Shown one piece after another: positions 45,864 to 52,294 of a stretch of DNA of 64,000 nucleotides. Location: contig OZ253555.1 of assembly GCA_965262725.1 (NCBI GenBank), positions 3,456,001 through 3,520,000 on the forward strand, written 5' to 3'. The stretch's first letter is position 1, and every line of letters starts with the position of its first letter. A program made the translations under genes and the position numbers. Under the pieces are notes generated by a model that was not told where the DNA came from, made no database searches, and saw only the letters and a list, made by a program, of their open reading frames with translations. This stretch comes from Dehalococcoidia bacterium (GTDB taxonomy: Bacteria; Chloroflexota; Dehalococcoidia; UBA2979).

Positions 45864-47033
45864 TTCGCCCCTTCTCCCGTGACCCAGGCGGACGGGCATC
45901 CACACGGATCTGGGCTGGCCAGGACGACCCTAGGCAATCTCGAGCCCGGAACGCAGCCTACTCTCAATCCACCGAATGGCGCCGAACCGCGCCGCGCCGG
46001 ATGGTGTAGCCAATGACGACCGCAGACGCTCGAGACCCGCGTGAGGATCGCGCGGCACTCGAAGGGCTGCTCGGCCCCGCTGAAGCGATCGAGACGCACC
46101 TGTTGCACTGGACGTCGACCCGGTTTCCAGGGGGTGACGACGCCCGATCGGGCCTCCCGTACGACGCCGATCGCCATGAGGCGGTCTATTACCATCACGA
46201 CCCCACCTCCGGCCTCCGAGCGATGATCGCGTTGCACGCGACCGTCCTCGGTCCCGGTCTGGGAGGGGCGCGCTGGCAGCCATACGCGGACATCGGCGAA
46301 GCGCTGACCGACGTGCTGCGACTCTCGGCGGCCATGACGGCAAAGATGGGAGTCTCGGGCCTCGACTGCGGCGGCGGCAAGGCCGTGATCGTCGGGGACC
46401 CGACGACCAAGACGACCGACCAACTCGCCGCCTACGGCCGCTTCGTCGAGCGGCTGCACGGGCACTACGTCACCGGCACCCACGTGGGCACCACCCTGGA
46501 TGAACTGCCAAAGATCGCCCAGCAAACGTCCCATATCGTGGGCCTCAGTCCGACCGGCGATGTCGTCAAGGACACGGCGGAGCCGACGGTGCTCAACGGT
46601 ATGCGCGCGGCGCTGCGCGCCGTGTTCGGAGACGGCTCGCTGGGCGGGGCGTCGCATCGTTGTCATCGGCGTGGGCAAGGTCGGCGGGGAGGTGACGCGC
46701 CGGGCCACCGCCGAGGGCGCTGAGGTCGCGGTAGCGGACCTGCACGAGGACGTCGCCGCTGATCTCGCGAATCAGATCGGCGCCGAACTCATCGCCCTCG
46801 ACGCCGCTTATCTCGAATCCACCGAACGAAGCTTGACGAGGCGGGGTGCCGGGCTGCCGGAGAGTTCGGCGGGCGTGCCGGCGTTCGCCGGGCGGCGCCG
46901 GGGGCGGGCCGGAGCCAGGAGCCGTCGCTCAGCACCGCTCGGGGGCGCTGAGGGTGCGGGCGCGAGGGTGCGCGAGGCGTGGGCGGGCATGCTGGCGCGA
47001 GCCTCGGACCCGGGTCGGCGCTGTGAGCGGGCG

Positions 47034-48359
47034 TCAGGCCGGGAGCGGTATCGCCCGTAGTCGCGCGAGCGCGGCTGCCAGCTGCTCTGCCCAGGGCCAG
47101 CGCTTCGGGAGGTGCAGAGTCCACCGCCGGGCAGAGCGGGTGAGCCGTCCGGCGAGAGAGAAGTAGCGCCGCCTGAGCGTCCTGGTCGTCATGATTCCCT
47201 CGCCGAGCCCGAGGCGCGCCGTCCAGCGGGCGAGGTTGTGCGCGATCACCTGCACCGCGAGCCACGCCGCGTTCGCGGCGAAGCGGCCCGAGGGGAGATG
47301 GTTCAACCCGACGCCGTACTTGAGGTCGCGGATCGCGTTCTCGATCTCGGCGTGACGGCGATGGTCGGCCTCCAGCTCCATCATCTCCCCCGCGCGGTTG
47401 GTGATGAAGACGTGGTAACTGTAGTCCACGAAGAGCGCGAGCTGTGACCCGGGCGTCGGCGTGACGCGCCGCACGATGAGCCGCACCGCAGTGGCGTCCC
47501 CCGTGTGCTGGAACGGCGTGTAGGTCGTCTCGGCGACAGCGGCGCCGCCCGCCAGCCAGTACGGGATCGGCGTCCAGTCCTCTTCCGGTATCGCCTCGAT
47601 CAGCGTGCGTAGGTTCCGCTGCTGGCGGACCGTGACTGAGAAGCGGACATCCATCGCGCGGCAGGCGGCGACGACGGCGTGGGTGTAGAAGCCGCTGTCG
47701 GCGCGCACCGTGAGCTGCCCGCTCGCCCCGGCGTCGCGCACCCGCGCCACCGTCTCACGCAGGAAGTGGGCGGCCCCCCGAGCGGTGTTGGCACGGCCCC
47801 CGCGCAGCCGGGCCATCAGCACCTCACCCGTCCCGGCCGCCACCGCGAACAGCGGGTGATAGCCCCGCACGCCCGTGTAGCCGTGGTGCCGGGCGCCCTC
47901 TTTCGCCAGTCCGTAGGTCTCGCAGAGCGTCGAGTCGAGGTCGATCGTGAACGGCGCCGCGCCGGGTCCCGCCCCGGCCGCCCAGCTGCGGGCCAGCAAC
48001 TCGCGGCTGACGCGGTCGAGCTGACGGACGTGGCCCCAGCGAAAGCTGCGCAGGAAGGTCCCGAGGGTGGACGGCGCCTTCACGGTGCAGCCGAGCACGC
48101 GCCCGGCGCCGCCTGAGCGCATGGCATCGGCGTCATCGATGCAGTCGCCGCCCGCGAGCGCCGAGGCGATGAGAGTCATCAGCTTGTCGCCGACGTTCGC
48201 CCGCCCCGCTGCGTCACCGAGGTCGAGGTGGGCGTCTGCCAGTTCACGGAGGCCGAGCCGGCCAGCGAGCGTGGCCGGGAGCAGCAGGCCCGCGTCGTCC
48301 ACGAGGCGGTCGTCGTCGAAGGCGATGTGTATCCGGTCGGGGCTGCTCGTTGGTAGCAT
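47034..48359 (-). CDS. IS1380-family DDE transposase
   Basis: AGLL, APSTLGTFLR, IDLDST, GYHPL, VRADSGFY, HRRHAEIENAIRDLK. Confidence 0.93.
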   Translation of the reverse strand: MLPTSSPDRIHIAFDDDRLVDDAGLLLPATLAGRLGLRELADAHLDLGDAAGRANVGDKLMTLIASALAGGDCIDDADAMRSGGAGRVLGCTVKAPSTLGTFLRSFRWGHVRQLDRVSRELLARSWAAGAGPGAAPFTIDLDSTLCETYGLAKEGARHHGYTGVRGYHPLFAVAAGTGEVLMARLRGGRANTARGAAHFLRETVARVRDAGASGQLTVRADSGFYTHAVVAACRAMDVRFSVTVRQQRNLRTLIEAIPEEDWTPIPYWLAGGAAVAETTYTPFQHTGDATAVRLIVRRVTPTPGSQLALFVDYSYHVFITNRAGEMMELEADHRRHAEIENAIRDLKYGVGLNHLPSGRFAANAAWLAVQVIAHNLARWTARLGLGEGIMTTRTLRRRYFSLAGRLTRSARRWTLHLPKRWPWAEQLAAALARLRAIPLPA

Positions 48360-48532
48360 CGAATGGGTGCTCCCTGTGGCTGTGACGTGATTCGTTGAAA
48401 AACCATTGTCCCAGCTACAGCGGAGCACCCATTCGCAGCCGCGCATGCGCTCTTCTTCGGTTCGCGGTAGGGATGCCGGTTGCCCGGCACCCCCCGCACA
48501 GATCCGGACGTGCCCTCTCGGGCATCCGGCTC

Positions 48533-49861
48533 CTACCTCAAGTGCGTGACGGCAAATCGCTCCGCAGGCCACGGGTGAAGGATGGAGATTCGGGGCCAGT
48601 GTTTCTGGCACAGGGCAAGGATGCGCTCCCACGTGAAACGGTCGCGCTGCGACCGCCGTCGGAGAACGCGCAGCCAGAGCCGCTTCACGACACGAACAAA
48701 CTGCGTGAGCGCCGGCGAGCTGGTCGGCACCGCGTAGTAGCCAAGCCACCCACGCAGTACCCGCCCCAGCCACTGCCCCGTCGTCACGGGGTTGTCGTGC
48801 ATGCGCCGCCACAACTCGGCCTTGATGGCCTTCAGCGTCCGGCGCATCCGCTTCGCAACGGGCTTGCGCCCCAGCCCGAATCTCCCGTCGCGTCGGGTCC
48901 GGCAGTAGTGCGTCATGCCGAGAAAGTCGAACGTCTCCGGTCGGCCCTCCCCGCGCTTCCGCCTGTTCGCCAGCGCGAACCTGCCGAACTCAAGTAGACG
49001 GGTCTTCTCCGGGTGCAGCTCCAGCCCGTAGGCCGCGAACCGCTCCCGGAGTGCCTCCATGAACCGCACCGCATCGCTGCGGTGCTGGAACCCCAGGACG
49101 AAGTCATCGGCATACCGCACGATGTACGCCTCGCCCCGGACCTCCCGCGGTCGCCACTCGCGCGCAAACCAGTCGTCGAGCACGTTGTGCAGGTACACGT
49201 TCGCAAGCAGCGGCGATATCGGCGCCCCCTGCGGCATCCCCCGCACGAAATCGACTTCCGGCTCCGCGTCCATGACGCCGACGCTCAGCCACTTTCGTAT
49301 CAGGCGCAACACCCGCTGGTCCCCGATGCGCATCTCCAGAAACGACATCAGCCGCCCCCGGTCGATGCTGCCGAAGAACTCCCGGATGTCCACCTCGACA
49401 ATCCAGCTGACCTTGCGCCGTTCGACCGCGTAGGCCAGTGCGTCCAGCGCGTCATGCGCCGAACGCCCCGGCCTGAAGCCATGCGAGAAGCCGTAGTAGC
49501 CCGACTCGTAAATCGGGTTCAAAAGATTGTCCACCACCGCCCGCTGAACGATCTTGTCCTCCAGCGAGACGATACCGAGCGGCCGTATTCCCCCGTCCGG
49601 CTTGGGTATCTCTACCCGCCTGACGGGCTTCGCCCGGTACGCTCCACGGTGTACGCGGCCATGCAGGTCGAGCAATCGCTCGTCCAGCCCGTCCCCGTAT
49701 TCTCGCCACCTCACCCCGTCCACGCCCGGAGCCGCATCCCGCTTCAACGCGAGATACGCCTCCCGCAGCGCCTCCGGCGTGATGTGGTGCAAGAGCGCGG
49801 TGAGTTTCTCTCCCGGCTTCCGTTCCACGAACTGCCGTATCCTCTCCGCTCCGGGTGACAC
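48533..49861 (-). CDS. ltrA: Group II intron reverse transcriptase/maturase
   Basis: APGVDG, IPKPDG..RPLGI, GFRPGRS, PQGAPISPLLAN, RYADD, FDFLG, maturase X domain; no HNH. Confidence 0.95.
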   Translation of the reverse strand: MSPGAERIRQFVERKPGEKLTALLHHITPEALREAYLALKRDAAPGVDGVRWREYGDGLDERLLDLHGRVHRGAYRAKPVRRVEIPKPDGGIRPLGIVSLEDKIVQRAVVDNLLNPIYESGYYGFSHGFRPGRSAHDALDALAYAVERRKVSWIVEVDIREFFGSIDRGRLMSFLEMRIGDQRVLRLIRKWLSVGVMDAEPEVDFVRGMPQGAPISPLLANVYLHNVLDDWFAREWRPREVRGEAYIVRYADDFVLGFQHRSDAVRFMEALRERFAAYGLELHPEKTRLLEFGRFALANRRKRGEGRPETFDFLGMTHYCRTRRDGRFGLGRKPVAKRMRRTLKAIKAELWRRMHDNPVTTGQWLGRVLRGWLGYYAVPTSSPALTQFVRVVKRLWLRVLRRRSQRDRFTWERILALCQKHWPRISILHPWPAERFAVTHLR

Positions 49862-50089
49862 CGCACCCCGACTCTGCGTCCGGACCGTGCCGGTGCTTTG
49901 AGGATTCCTCTCGGTTGGGGCCCTTTGCTCCAGCGACTCCGCCGGGGCTCGCGCCCCCTTCTATGAGGGTCGTCTGATCCGCAAGGCCGACGTGGCGGCC
50001 TTCTGCACCGTTCTACCGATCGCGCCTCCCGTCCGCAGCCCTGTGGTGGTTGTCGGTGCCGATGCGAGTGGTGCCGCCGTCTTGTCCCC

Positions 50090-50240
50090 GGGACGTTGTG
50101 GTGACCGTGCTTCTATTCGCACTCGTCGAGGGGCCGCTCCGGGCCCGGTGCATGATGATCAGCCTGTCTCCAGGGTGTGGGCGCTGCCATCTTGTTCCCG
50201 TCCTCGTTGGGACCAGGGGGTTCCGCAGTCGCCCGCGTGT
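50090..50240 (-). ncRNA. Predicted bridge/seek RNA of the IS1111-type element
   Basis: Target loop CCCCCT..hairpin..GAACAAG and donor loop TCATC..hairpin..ATAGAAG on the minus strand; boundaries approximate. Confidence 0.75.
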
Positions 50241-50306
50241 CGGCATCTCTCGTATCCTCCGAAGCCCACCGGCCGCCCGGTCGCCTCGCTCCTCGCGTGC
50301 TGTCTG

Positions 50307-51398
50307 CTACGCCGCCTCGGCCGCGCGCGCGTGGCGCAACGGCTCGTAGACCTCCCCGCTCTTCCAGAGCGCAAGCATCAGCACCGCCAGTCGCCTCGCG
50401 ACCGCGACGACGGCACGCTTCTTCGCATTGCCGGCCCCCGACTCCGCGTAACGCAGCCCCCACCTGCGGAGGTCGCTGTCGGGGCCGAAGGGGCCCAGGA
50501 TGTAGTGCGCGGCCTGGTTCAGCACCCGGCGCAGCGCCACGTCCCCTTCCTTCGTGATCCGCAGCTGGGGCTGCCGATCACCGGAATCGCGGCTCCGGGG
50601 CACCAGCCCCAGGTAGGGCCCCACCTCCCTGTTCTTGGGGAAGCGGGCCGGGTCCTCGATGGTGAGGATGAAGGTGAGCGAGGTGATCGGGCCGACGCCC
50701 ACGATCTGCCGCAGCGCGCCGGTCTCCGCGTAGCGCTCGCACATCGCGGCGAGCTTCTTGTCGGCCTGGCGGATCTCCCCGGTCAGCTGCTCGATCTGGT
50801 GGAGCACCGGCAGCAGCGCCGGGCCCAGCTCCTCGGGGATGTGCTCTCTGACCGCGCGGTGGAAGGCCGGCGCCGTGCAGCCCGGAAGCGCCGCGCCCCA
50901 CGCCTTCACCGCGCCCCGGACGTGGTTGATGAACATCGTGCGCGCCCGGACCAGCGCCTCGCGGCTGCGGAGCACCTGGAGGTCCGCCTGCGCCATGGCG
51001 CTTCGGTGCCGGATGGGGAAGAGGAGCGCCGGGTCGAATCGGCCGAGCCGTGCGAGGTGCTCGGCATCGGAGCGGTCGGTCTTGCGCTGGCTGCGCGCGA
51101 TCAGCCTGACCTGCCTCGGGTTGGCGACGATCACGTCGTGACCGAGCTCCGCGAACATCCGGCTCAGCCACGGGGAACGCGGCCCCACCTCCATCACCAC
51201 CCGGGCGCCCTGCAGTGGGGTGAGCGCCCGCGTGAGCGCCGCGGTCGTGGTGCGGACTCGCTCCTCCCGCACGATCTCCCCGTCGCCACCGAGGACGCAG
51301 AGGTGGCTGTAGCGGTCGCTGACGTCGATGCCGACAGTCACGAGCTCCGCATCCCCCACCTTCCTGCTCTCTGTGACATCTGATGTACGCTGTGCCAC
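50307..51398 (-). CDS. IS110/IS1111 recombinase
   Basis: GIDVS, VMEVG, KTDRSDA, YLGLVP..DSG; GTG start after AGGAG. Confidence 0.95.
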   Translation of the reverse strand: MAQRTSDVTESRKVGDAELVTVGIDVSDRYSHLCVLGGDGEIVREERVRTTTAALTRALTPLQGARVVMEVGPRSPWLSRMFAELGHDVIVANPRQVRLIARSQRKTDRSDAEHLARLGRFDPALLFPIRHRSAMAQADLQVLRSREALVRARTMFINHVRGAVKAWGAALPGCTAPAFHRAVREHIPEELGPALLPVLHQIEQLTGEIRQADKKLAAMCERYAETGALRQIVGVGPITSLTFILTIEDPARFPKNREVGPYLGLVPRSRDSGDRQPQLRITKEGDVALRRVLNQAAHYILGPFGPDSDLRRWGLRYAESGAGNAKKRAVVAVARRLAVLMLALWKSGEVYEPLRHARAAEAA

Positions 51399-52294
51399 GG
51401 TCGGTCTCCTACCTCTCTCGGCTCGCCTGAGCCGTTCTCCTGGGCCACCACGTGAGCCCGTGCTTGGAGGGGAAGTATCCCCTCTGAGGAGGGGACCGAC
51501 CCTCATGTCATCTTGTTCGCCGCCTTCATCGCTCGTACGGCCCCATCAGACTGCTGCGCATCGTTCATCATCGGCTACGGTTTACGTCCCTTCCCGACGC
51601 GGTCCCGGCGTACGACTCGTCGGGACAACGCGCAGCTCTCCCAAGTCCCGGCGATAGACGTGTGTGCGTGCATGGGGTCTTCGACACCGTGGGGCCCGAC
51701 CACGACTCGCCAGTAGCGCCGTCGCCGGTATTGCCTTCGACCAATCCAAGAGCCTCGGCACCCCAAATGGCCCTTTCGATGCTCATTAGCCCCGCCCGCA
51801 CACCCCGCTGCCGACGCTTCACAAGCCGCCTCGCGACGACCCGCGCACGGCTCGCGGAATGACATGAGTGGCTAGCTCTTTGCCATAGAGGACTTCCACC
51901 TCCTGCCTACTCGCCAGTTAGCCTGGCGCTCTGGATCAGGGCTTATGCGCAGCCGTGCGACGTGCTCTCGCCGAACGCACTCGGCGGCGTGTTGAACGAT
52001 GTGACGATCCGCAAGTTGCGCTGCCGCATCGTCTGCGGCGGGGCGAACAACCAGTTGCAACGCGACCCCGCCGACGCCGAACTCCTTAGCCGCACGCGGG
52101 ATCGCGTATGCGCCGGACTACGTCGTGAACGCTGGCGGCGCCATCGAGGTCGGTGTCGACTACGGCGTCGGCTCGACGGCGTCGGAGCAACCGTGCTGGA
52201 GCTGCTAAGCCGCGCAGAGCGCGAGGGCATCTCGACCGCGGAGGCGGCGTTGCGGAGCGTTGACGTCCGACTCGCGCGGGCGCTGGCCGGGTGA

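Follow-up and report, generated by a model that had tools for sequence, protein, structure and literature searches.

An endonuclease-less group II intron that appears to home into both terminal inverted repeats of an IS1380-family element in a Dehalococcoidia genome

INTRODUCTION

The closest described systems to the element examined here are two group II introns of Sinorhizobium meliloti, for which we follow the available excerpts of the cited papers. RmInt2 of strain GR4 resides in both the left and the right inverted repeats (IRs) of the insertion sequence (IS) ISRm17, and its retrohoming, which shows a lagging-strand bias, has been established by experiment (PMC4615759; Toro et al. 2018, PMC5894124). 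Its authors argue that inverted targets double the available sites and guarantee one on the lagging-strand template (PMC4615759, PMC5894124). RmInt1, which inserts into ISRm2011-2, is likewise biased toward the lagging strand, and its insertion is said to block spread of that IS (PMC5894124, PMC4615759). Here, we describe a group II intron inserted in the terminal IR of an IS1380-family element, within a 64,000-nt window (contig positions 3456001–3520000) of a Dehalococcoidia bacterium genome that consists of a single contig (3.67 Mb, 70.6% G+C). Comparison with the other copies in this genome makes RNA-guided homing of an endonuclease-less intron into IS1380 IR tips, very probably, the best overall explanation of this arrangement.

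As far as those excerpts describe it, RmInt2 resembles the window intron in being an endonuclease-less, IIB-type intron present in several copies, all of them in IS IRs and at both ends. The pairing between exon-binding site 2 (EBS2) and intron-binding site 2 (IBS2) is relaxed in both introns, with four of five pairs tolerated in RmInt2. The two differ in their intron-encoded proteins (IEPs), since that of RmInt2 belongs to open reading frame (ORF) class D, has 419 aa and carries the motif LX3AX3PXLF[V/A]HW (PMC4615759), whereas the window IEP has 442 aa and, by eye, lacks it. They differ as well in target, ISRm17 being assigned to the ISNCY family (PMC10194956) and the window target to IS1380, and in host, an alphaproteobacterium versus a Dehalococcoidia-like genome. 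RmInt2 homing was shown experimentally, whereas that of the window intron is deduced from sequence comparison. RmInt1 shares with the window intron the lack of an endonuclease and a natural target in an abundant IS; its single site in ISRm2011-2 is not stated to be an IR in the text available, and splicing could in principle restore the interrupted transcript. The target of the window intron, in contrast, is an IR acting at the DNA level, beyond repair by splicing.

RESULTS

Intron boundaries and insertion into IS1380 termini

The intron occupies the minus strand from 51931 to 48461 (plain coordinates are window positions; contig-scale coordinates are labelled "genome"). It starts with GAGCGCC, ends in ...CCCUACCGCGAA, and covers an interval of 3,471 nt, composed of 1,917 nt of intron and a nested 1,554-nt IS110-family element. 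Because empty ends of other IS copies were compared (8 upstream and 15 downstream ends of the main IS type), the boundaries are exact and the intron can be placed unambiguously, directly after the 10th IR nucleotide. Deletion of 51931–48461 regenerates CCCTGATCCA/CCGAAGAAGAG, the arrangement found in the 8 empty upstream ends, and the 15 empty downstream ends read CTCGAATCCA/CCGAACGAAGC, where the slash marks the intron position in occupied copies.

An initial annotation of this DNA had reported the intron at 48461–51946. Its 48461 end is retained, whereas 51932–51941 belongs to the IR tip and 51942–51946 to the target duplication; by counting the whole 3.47 kb as intron, it also missed the nested IS110. 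Its proposal that the intron splits the IR 10 nt from the tip proved exact, and the sequences it quoted all occur at the positions given (5′ exon ...GCCCTGATCCA at 51942–51932 on the minus strand, EBS1 at 51748–51743, EBS2 at 51774–51770, AATCCA at 46816–46821). AATCCA does lie in the opposite IS end, as claimed, but the tip of that end starts at 46812.

All 14 intron 5′ junctions in the genome directly follow the 10th nucleotide of an IS1380-type IR. The tips at these junctions are CCCTGATCCA of the upstream-end IR (n = 9), CTCGAATCCA of the opposite IR (n = 3), and the variants CCCGGATCCA and CCCGAATCCA (n = 1 each); two of the 14 copies are hosted by an IS1380 relative of only 82% identity. 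The homing to IS1380 ends proposed initially agrees with these junctions in both IR types, and the suggestion that the AATCCA end is a further target proves correct, since three downstream ends are occupied at other genome sites.

Among the 12 full intron copies there are 11 single-nucleotide polymorphism (SNP) columns in 1,917 nt, whereas the window IS1380 differs from each of 13 other IS copies at 34 to 60 of 1,540 positions. Occupied IS copies have empty twins at 0 to 3 differences. Given that the intron copies resemble one another much more closely than do the IS copies that host them, and that these hosts have such empty twins, the intron appears to have invaded IS copies many times. No IS1380 copy among those in the genome carried introns at both ends, and seven had both ends empty. 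Repeated retrohoming into both ends of pre-existing, diverged IS copies, and not multiplication as a passenger, is strongly supported by these comparisons.

Across the class, the combination of tip and intron junction was detected in 2 of 400 other sampled genomes (3 of 401 with the source genome), and it was not found in the one other genome of the same genus. Such cases include two loci from Dehalococcoidia metagenome-assembled genomes (MAGs), L002 (2521–4400) and L022 (2465–4470), which have an IS1380 tip with a TAAG or TTAG flank as 5′ exon.

Covariation of the exon-binding sites with their targets

EBS1 and EBS2 both fall at positions left variable by the RF02005 consensus (Table 1). The initial annotation had placed EBS1 in domain I, and the structure model does put this hexamer in a variable hairpin loop and not elsewhere. 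Related loci comprised 24 in six Dehalococcoidia MAG assemblies (IEPs 82–95% identical over the best aligned segment) and two diverged copies in the source genome, and these introns combine different 5′ exons with correspondingly different loop sequences.

We quantified this relationship in an alignment of 21 intron-plus-exon rows, from exon position −20 to intron position +220. All six IBS1–EBS1 pairs showed changes on both sides, with 90.5% of cells paired, and they covary over at least six target types. Over the whole structure of 18 pairs, 85.4% of cells were paired, versus 16–51% when the partner was slid by 1 to 3 columns, and none of 500 shuffles gave a covariation score as high as the one observed. 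Because the covariation exceeds both slides and shuffles, we regard the EBS1–IBS1 pairing as beyond chance and retain the EBS1 assignment. The EBS2 core GGGC was paired with positions −11 to −8 in 70% of cells, and the additional pair between A(51774) and U(−7) formed in only 2 of 20 rows; of the AGGGC originally proposed as EBS2, the core is thus kept and the A is not. The alignment omits L019, whose exon was misaligned by one column (its IBS1–EBS1 pairing, checked by hand, is 6 of 6); L011, whose EBS1 hairpin is broken by an insertion; L013–L015, L017, L018, L021 and L024, whose intron and 30-nt 5′ exon duplicate an included row; L020 and L023, with unmapped 5′ ends; and 8 of the 14 source-genome copies, whose tip types were already represented.

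Classification of the ribozyme and its protein

Domain I matched Rfam model RF02005 (group-II-D1D4-6) at 51896–51675 on the minus strand over its full length (1–225), scoring 170 bits against a cut-off of 49. The upper helix of domain V (D5) covaries among relatives, which keep the same D5, and a candidate bulged branch A was read by eye at 48468. Domains V and VI scored 39.9 bits with RF00029. In all members of the intron clade, a G faces an A beneath the AGC triad of D5, and most begin with GAGCG instead of GUGYG (window 48501–48532 and 51927–51931, minus strand); these traits account for an RF00029 score just under the cut-off of 40.

No endonuclease (D/En, HNH) domain was found in the IEP, for which Pfam returned RVT_1 only and TIGR04416 spanned residues 30–403 of 442. 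On these sequence features, we classify the element as an endonuclease-less, IIB-like group II intron of Rfam type D1D4-6. ORF class D (IIB3), to which RmInt1 and RmInt2 belong, was rejected, as the IEP C-terminus ...LALCQKHWPRISILHPWPAERF... misfits LX3AX3PXLF[V/A]HW by eye and the RNA is of type D1D4-6. Class E and the unclassified groups were weighed as well, following the available excerpts of PMC3552965 and PMC3753933. A 5-nt D5 loop is described for IIE/IIF; no such loop was seen in the window intron, where the D5 loop reads GAGA.

Related introns in other genomes

The sister introns from five other Dehalococcoidia MAG assemblies (L001, L003–L021, L023 and L024; IEPs 82–89% identical over the best aligned segment) share the ribozyme of the window intron, a GAGCG or GUGCG start, the D5, and the EBS loop positions. 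They differ in having other EBS1 and EBS2 sequences and other targets: several adjoin IS110- or IS21-type genes, and some lie in ordinary genes or intergenic DNA. At L012 (2380–4420), a sister intron with EBS1 UGGUAU is inserted in antisense orientation at the left-end tip of an IS110-like element or 1 nt within it. L013–L015, L017, L018 and L024 carry the same 30-nt 5′ exon, and the IS110 adjacency was seen in L012, the one checked. Introns of this clade may have specialised repeatedly on IS termini.

Introns assigned to RF02005 match the window intron in domain I architecture (137–170 bits) and IEP length, while their IEPs are only 53–57% identical to that of the window. The closest proteobacterial relative examined, an S. 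meliloti pSymA intron (CP140958.1; L025 2300–4472), is also of type D1D4-6, has an IEP 54% identical, and lies, by annotation, directly upstream of istA of the IS21-like ISRm9. Other introns of the pSymA replicon with 33–34% IEP identity match D1D4-2, and one with 42% identity matches D1D4-3 and D1D4-1; we presume that they include RmInt1-type introns.

Literature searches for group II introns with IS1380, with terminal inverted repeats and retrohoming, and with Dehalococcoidia returned no relevant paper, judged by the listed records.

Occupancy, the −11 base and replication orientation

The genome contains 39 near-identical target sites, 14 occupied and 25 empty. A consensus T-N-A-G is conserved in the flank upstream of the tip. 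G occupied position −11 at 13 of 14 occupied versus 13 of 25 empty sites (Fisher p = 0.013), an enrichment that fits pairing of EBS2 C(51770) past the IS tip and into the flank.

We inferred origin and terminus from the cumulative GC skew, whose minimum lies near 0.4 Mb, and from dnaA at 478 kb. On this basis, 10 of 14 occupied versus 11 of 25 empty sites had the lagging-template orientation (p = 0.18). Where the GC skew was clear, the figures were 6 of 6 versus 3 of 11 (p = 0.009), after post hoc exclusion of 1.8–2.56 Mb. When replication direction was instead read from local skew, at three thresholds and for two window sizes, p values lay between 0.02 and 0.18; strand bias of long ORFs was uninformative as a marker of this direction. 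Across definitions (p = 0.009–0.18), a replication-strand bias is suggestive only. In the window itself, the occupied end has G at −11 and lies in lagging orientation, and the empty end (46821/46822) has T at −11 and lies in leading orientation.

Opposite the origin region, a stretch of about 0.7 Mb (genome 1.9–2.6 Mb) has a flat GC skew and contains the bulk of the debris formed by nested IS1380, intron and IS110 copies. Head-to-head IS copies also occur in this stretch, at genome 2029222/2029247. These features suggest rearrangements around the terminus.

Insertions of mobile elements into one another

The IS110-family element nested in the window intron is absent from nine other intron copies. 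It occupies the identical site, CGGCGAACAAG/GGGGCGCGAG at intron nt 420, in four introns, of which three are copies with differing SNP haplotypes and the fourth is diverged; the other insertions are at genome ~337675–339228, ~3305830–3307383 and ~1954815–1956368. Four of the five full-length IS110 copies in the genome sit at this sequence, and 10 matching sites are empty. This distribution suggests that IS110 targets the intron site-specifically, possibly guided by RNA. The 175-nt left end of IS110 shares 7-mers with the target (GCGAGCC) and with the donor end (GACCGAC(C)); such shared 7-mers were few and too weak for a bridge RNA call, which we rejected.

A second, related group II intron, which starts with GUGCG and whose domain I is 81% alike, occupies three other IS1380 copies (genome ~1921198, ~1951736 and ~2020541). 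It lies antisense, just upstream of the transposase start, at a site equivalent to 48367/48368 on the plus strand of the window and empty there. Its pairings at the homologous loops are perfect (EBS1 CCCAUU with IBS1 AAUGGG, EBS2 GAUGC with IBS2 GCAUC). Counting this internal IS1380 site, two introns insert at three sites of the same IS.

An IS5-family element (NF033581, 271 bits) breaks the reverse transcriptase (RT) ORF at intron nt ~858–887 in two further intron copies, in opposite orientations (L056, genome 1876050–1877520; L057, genome 1522700–1525060), one of them with extra DNA. Altogether, 5 of 12 full-length intron copies are broken by IS elements. From these patterns one might picture a network in which several layers of Dehalococcoidia mobile elements target one another site-specifically, with introns on IS termini, IS110 on intron domain IV and IS5 on the RT ORF; we consider it a tentative and rather doubtful generalisation.

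Architecture of the locus

On comparison of sequences, the locus is layered, from the outside inwards, as host gene, IS1380, intron and IS110 (Table 1). The IS1380-family element has a DDE transposase, IRs CCCTGATCCACCGAA and CTCGAATCCACCGAA and a 5-bp duplication; elements of this family typically produce 4–5 bp duplications and end in CC. Without the intron, the element measures 1,659 bp, and flank readings of other copies gave further 5-bp duplications such as CTAAG and CTTAA.

Weak NAD-binding, Rossmann-type matches were found at 46500–46814 of the interrupted dehydrogenase gene, and its 3′ remainder from 51947 onwards had no Pfam match. The gene also changes frame at 46500–46723 (plus strand), where ORFs 46013–46723 and 46500–47060 overlap in different frames, which may reflect either a pseudogene or an assembly indel.

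Table 1. Features assigned at the intron-bearing IS1380 locus, in window coordinates
Feature	Position	Strand	Details
Intron 5′ segment, nt 1–420 (domains I–III and start of IV)	51512–51931	−	5′ end GAGCG; identical or near-identical in 13 other copies
Domains V and VI with 3′ splice site	48461–48534	−	D5 at 48532–48501; last intron nucleotide 48461
Intron-encoded RT/maturase (IEP), 442 aa	48533–49861	−	Encoded in domain IV; TIGR04416 group_II_RT_mat, 327.3 bits (cut-off 300); YADD present
Assigned EBS1, UGGAUU	51743–51748	−	Terminal loop of the conserved hairpin GCCGAGGCU-loop-GGUCGAAGGC (GCCGAG...GAAGGC) in RF02005
Assigned EBS2, A-GGGC	51770–51774	−	Core GGGC at 51770–51773; variable internal-loop strand just 5′ of the EBS1 hairpin
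Nested IS110-family element, 1,554 nt	~49958–51511	−	Ends uncertain by one triplet, AAG; follows intron nt 420 within domain IV, 5′ of the RT ORF
IS110 transposase	~50307–51347	−	NF033542 transpos_IS110, 217.3 bits (cut-off 140); Pfam DEDD_Tnp_IS110, Transposase_20
IS1380-family element	46812–51941		Target duplication CTTAT, 5 bp
Left target-site duplication CTTAT	46807–46811	+	Identical pentamer at 51942–51946
Right target-site duplication CTTAT	51942–51946	+	First base is G on the minus strand (position −11) and completes IBS2
Downstream-end IR, CTCGAATCCA/CCGAACGAAGC...	46812–46834	+	Empty potential intron target, 46821/46822; this IR type is occupied at three other genome sites
IS1380-family transposase ORF, 442 aa	47034–48362	−	NCBIfam NF033539 transpos_IS1380, 337.8 bits (cut-off 180); Pfam DDE_Tnp_1_4, 204 bits
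IS1380 leader and inner upstream-end IR (intron 3′ exon), CCGAAGAAGAG...	48363–48460	−	Joined to CCCTGATCCA in 8 empty upstream ends
Upstream-end IR tip, 10 nt, CCCTGATCCA	51932–51941	−	IBS1 at 51932–51937 and most of IBS2 at 51938–51941
Disrupted host gene, 5′ part, Glu/Leu/Phe/Val dehydrogenase	46013–46811	+	Pfam ELFV_dehydrog_N on 46013–46723; rest resumes at 51947

DISCUSSION

Proposed mechanism of homing and its possible effect on the IS

In the mechanism that we propose, the intron RNA would recognise the outermost 10–11 nt of IS1380-family IRs by base pairing: EBS1 would pair with (G/A)AUCCA at −6 to −1 and the EBS2 core with GC(C/U)C at −11 to −8, the G at −11 being the final base of the IS target-site duplication. 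Next, the intron would reverse-splice, directly after IR nucleotide 10, into the strand that reads from the tip inwards, and its own RT would copy it into DNA. Since the IEP has no endonuclease, priming would most likely come from the nascent lagging strand at the replication fork, as for RmInt1 and RmInt2 in the excerpts available (PMC4615759, PMC5894124); because the IRs are inverted, each IS copy would present one favourably oriented end. The window copy would be one of 14 such products. Its host, an old and diverged IS that already disrupted the dehydrogenase gene, would have been invaded at the upstream IR, and the IS110-family element would have landed later in domain IV.

The consequences for the IS follow from the place of insertion. 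DDE transposases bind the inner IR and cleave at the tip, so that parting the two should abolish end function. With the tip, where cleavage occurs, separated from the inner IR by 1.9–3.5 kb of DNA, the IS end would become non-functional, and splicing could not repair it, because the IR acts as DNA, unlike the transposase ORF. Immobilisation of this IS copy, which the initial annotation put forward, is therefore plausible.

Several observations weigh against this account. The ribozyme is atypical in its GAGCG start (not GUGYG), in the G that faces an A under the AGC triad of D5, and in falling 0.1 bit short of the RF00029 cut-off. In L002 and L022, the 3′ exons are unrelated to IS1380, and in L022 an IS110-type gene follows; ectopic events, or a rearrangement involving different intron copies, could be the cause. 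One occupied site has C at −11. The strand bias is not significant genome-wide and hangs on post hoc exclusion of the flat-skew stretch at 1.8–2.56 Mb. At least four empty ends combine G at −11 with favourable orientation (genome 290777, 2592009, 2444940 and 2455803), and because such ends remain empty, other determinants or chance must matter. The window intron itself holds a 1.55-kb IS110 in domain IV, and this copy may no longer be mobile. Finally, splicing, retrohoming and IS immobilisation are all deduced here from sequence.

Alternative explanations

A simpler history would have the intron enter one IS1380 copy once and spread passively by composite transposition, with no targeting of the IR. 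An intact 5-bp duplication flanks the composite in every checkable occupied IS, as such transposition would leave. However, passive spread does not account for introns in both IR types and in the 82%-identical IS relative, for intron copies that are far more alike (11 SNP columns over 1,917 nt) than their hosts (up to 60 differences over 1,540), for the near-identical empty twins, or for EBS1 and EBS2 sequences that complement the IR tip and, in relatives, change together with the target. On these comparisons, passive spread is very improbable and already close to refuted. Still less credible, if only slightly, is a coincidental EBS–IBS match, with IS ends chosen for another property such as frequent single-strandedness or by IEP-directed targeting. 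Class D IEPs recognise distal exon positions, according to the excerpts of PMC4615759 available, and the conserved T-N-A-G flank upstream of the tip could be read by a protein; yet covariation extends to all six IBS1–EBS1 pairs over six or more target types, and the EBS1 hexamer lies in a loop that the Rfam model leaves variable.

The alternative with the most weight, although we consider it unlikely, accepts that the intron homes to the IR and holds that the IS stays mobile, by using the split or an alternative end or by moving as a composite, so that the intron would ride along neutrally without acting as a brake. The window copy retains an intact transposase ORF, and the seven IS copies that lack an intron at either end still coexist with occupied ones. 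Against continued mobility, the distance of 1.9–3.5 kb between tip and inner IR should abolish end function, given how DDE transposases work, and among the genome copies none has an intron-bearing end with flanks that require movement after the intron was gained. RNA-guided homing into the IR tips, with a plausible loss of function of the invaded IS end, remains our preferred explanation.

Implications

The initial annotation regarded IR-directed homing as the new element of this locus, which overstated the case, as RmInt2 in ISRm17 provides a precedent in the available text of PMC4615759 and PMC5894124. Homing to both IR ends was already known from RmInt2, and the window intron is apparently an independent second example, differing in intron Rfam type, IS family and host phylum. 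Homing into both IRs would then not be unique to RmInt2, in support of inverted targets as a general solution for introns primed at replication forks. With 14 of 39 target sites occupied, the genome offers a natural experiment, which hints at roles for the −11 G and for orientation, and the EBS–IBS rules could guide retargeting of a little-studied intron type. The nested IS110, repeated at one intron site, provides a natural target pair for study of RNA-guided IS110 recombinases. If the targeting among these elements is real and reciprocal, they would act as natural brakes on one another, and the intron would then represent a second, independently evolved strategy of IS silencing that acts at the DNA level.

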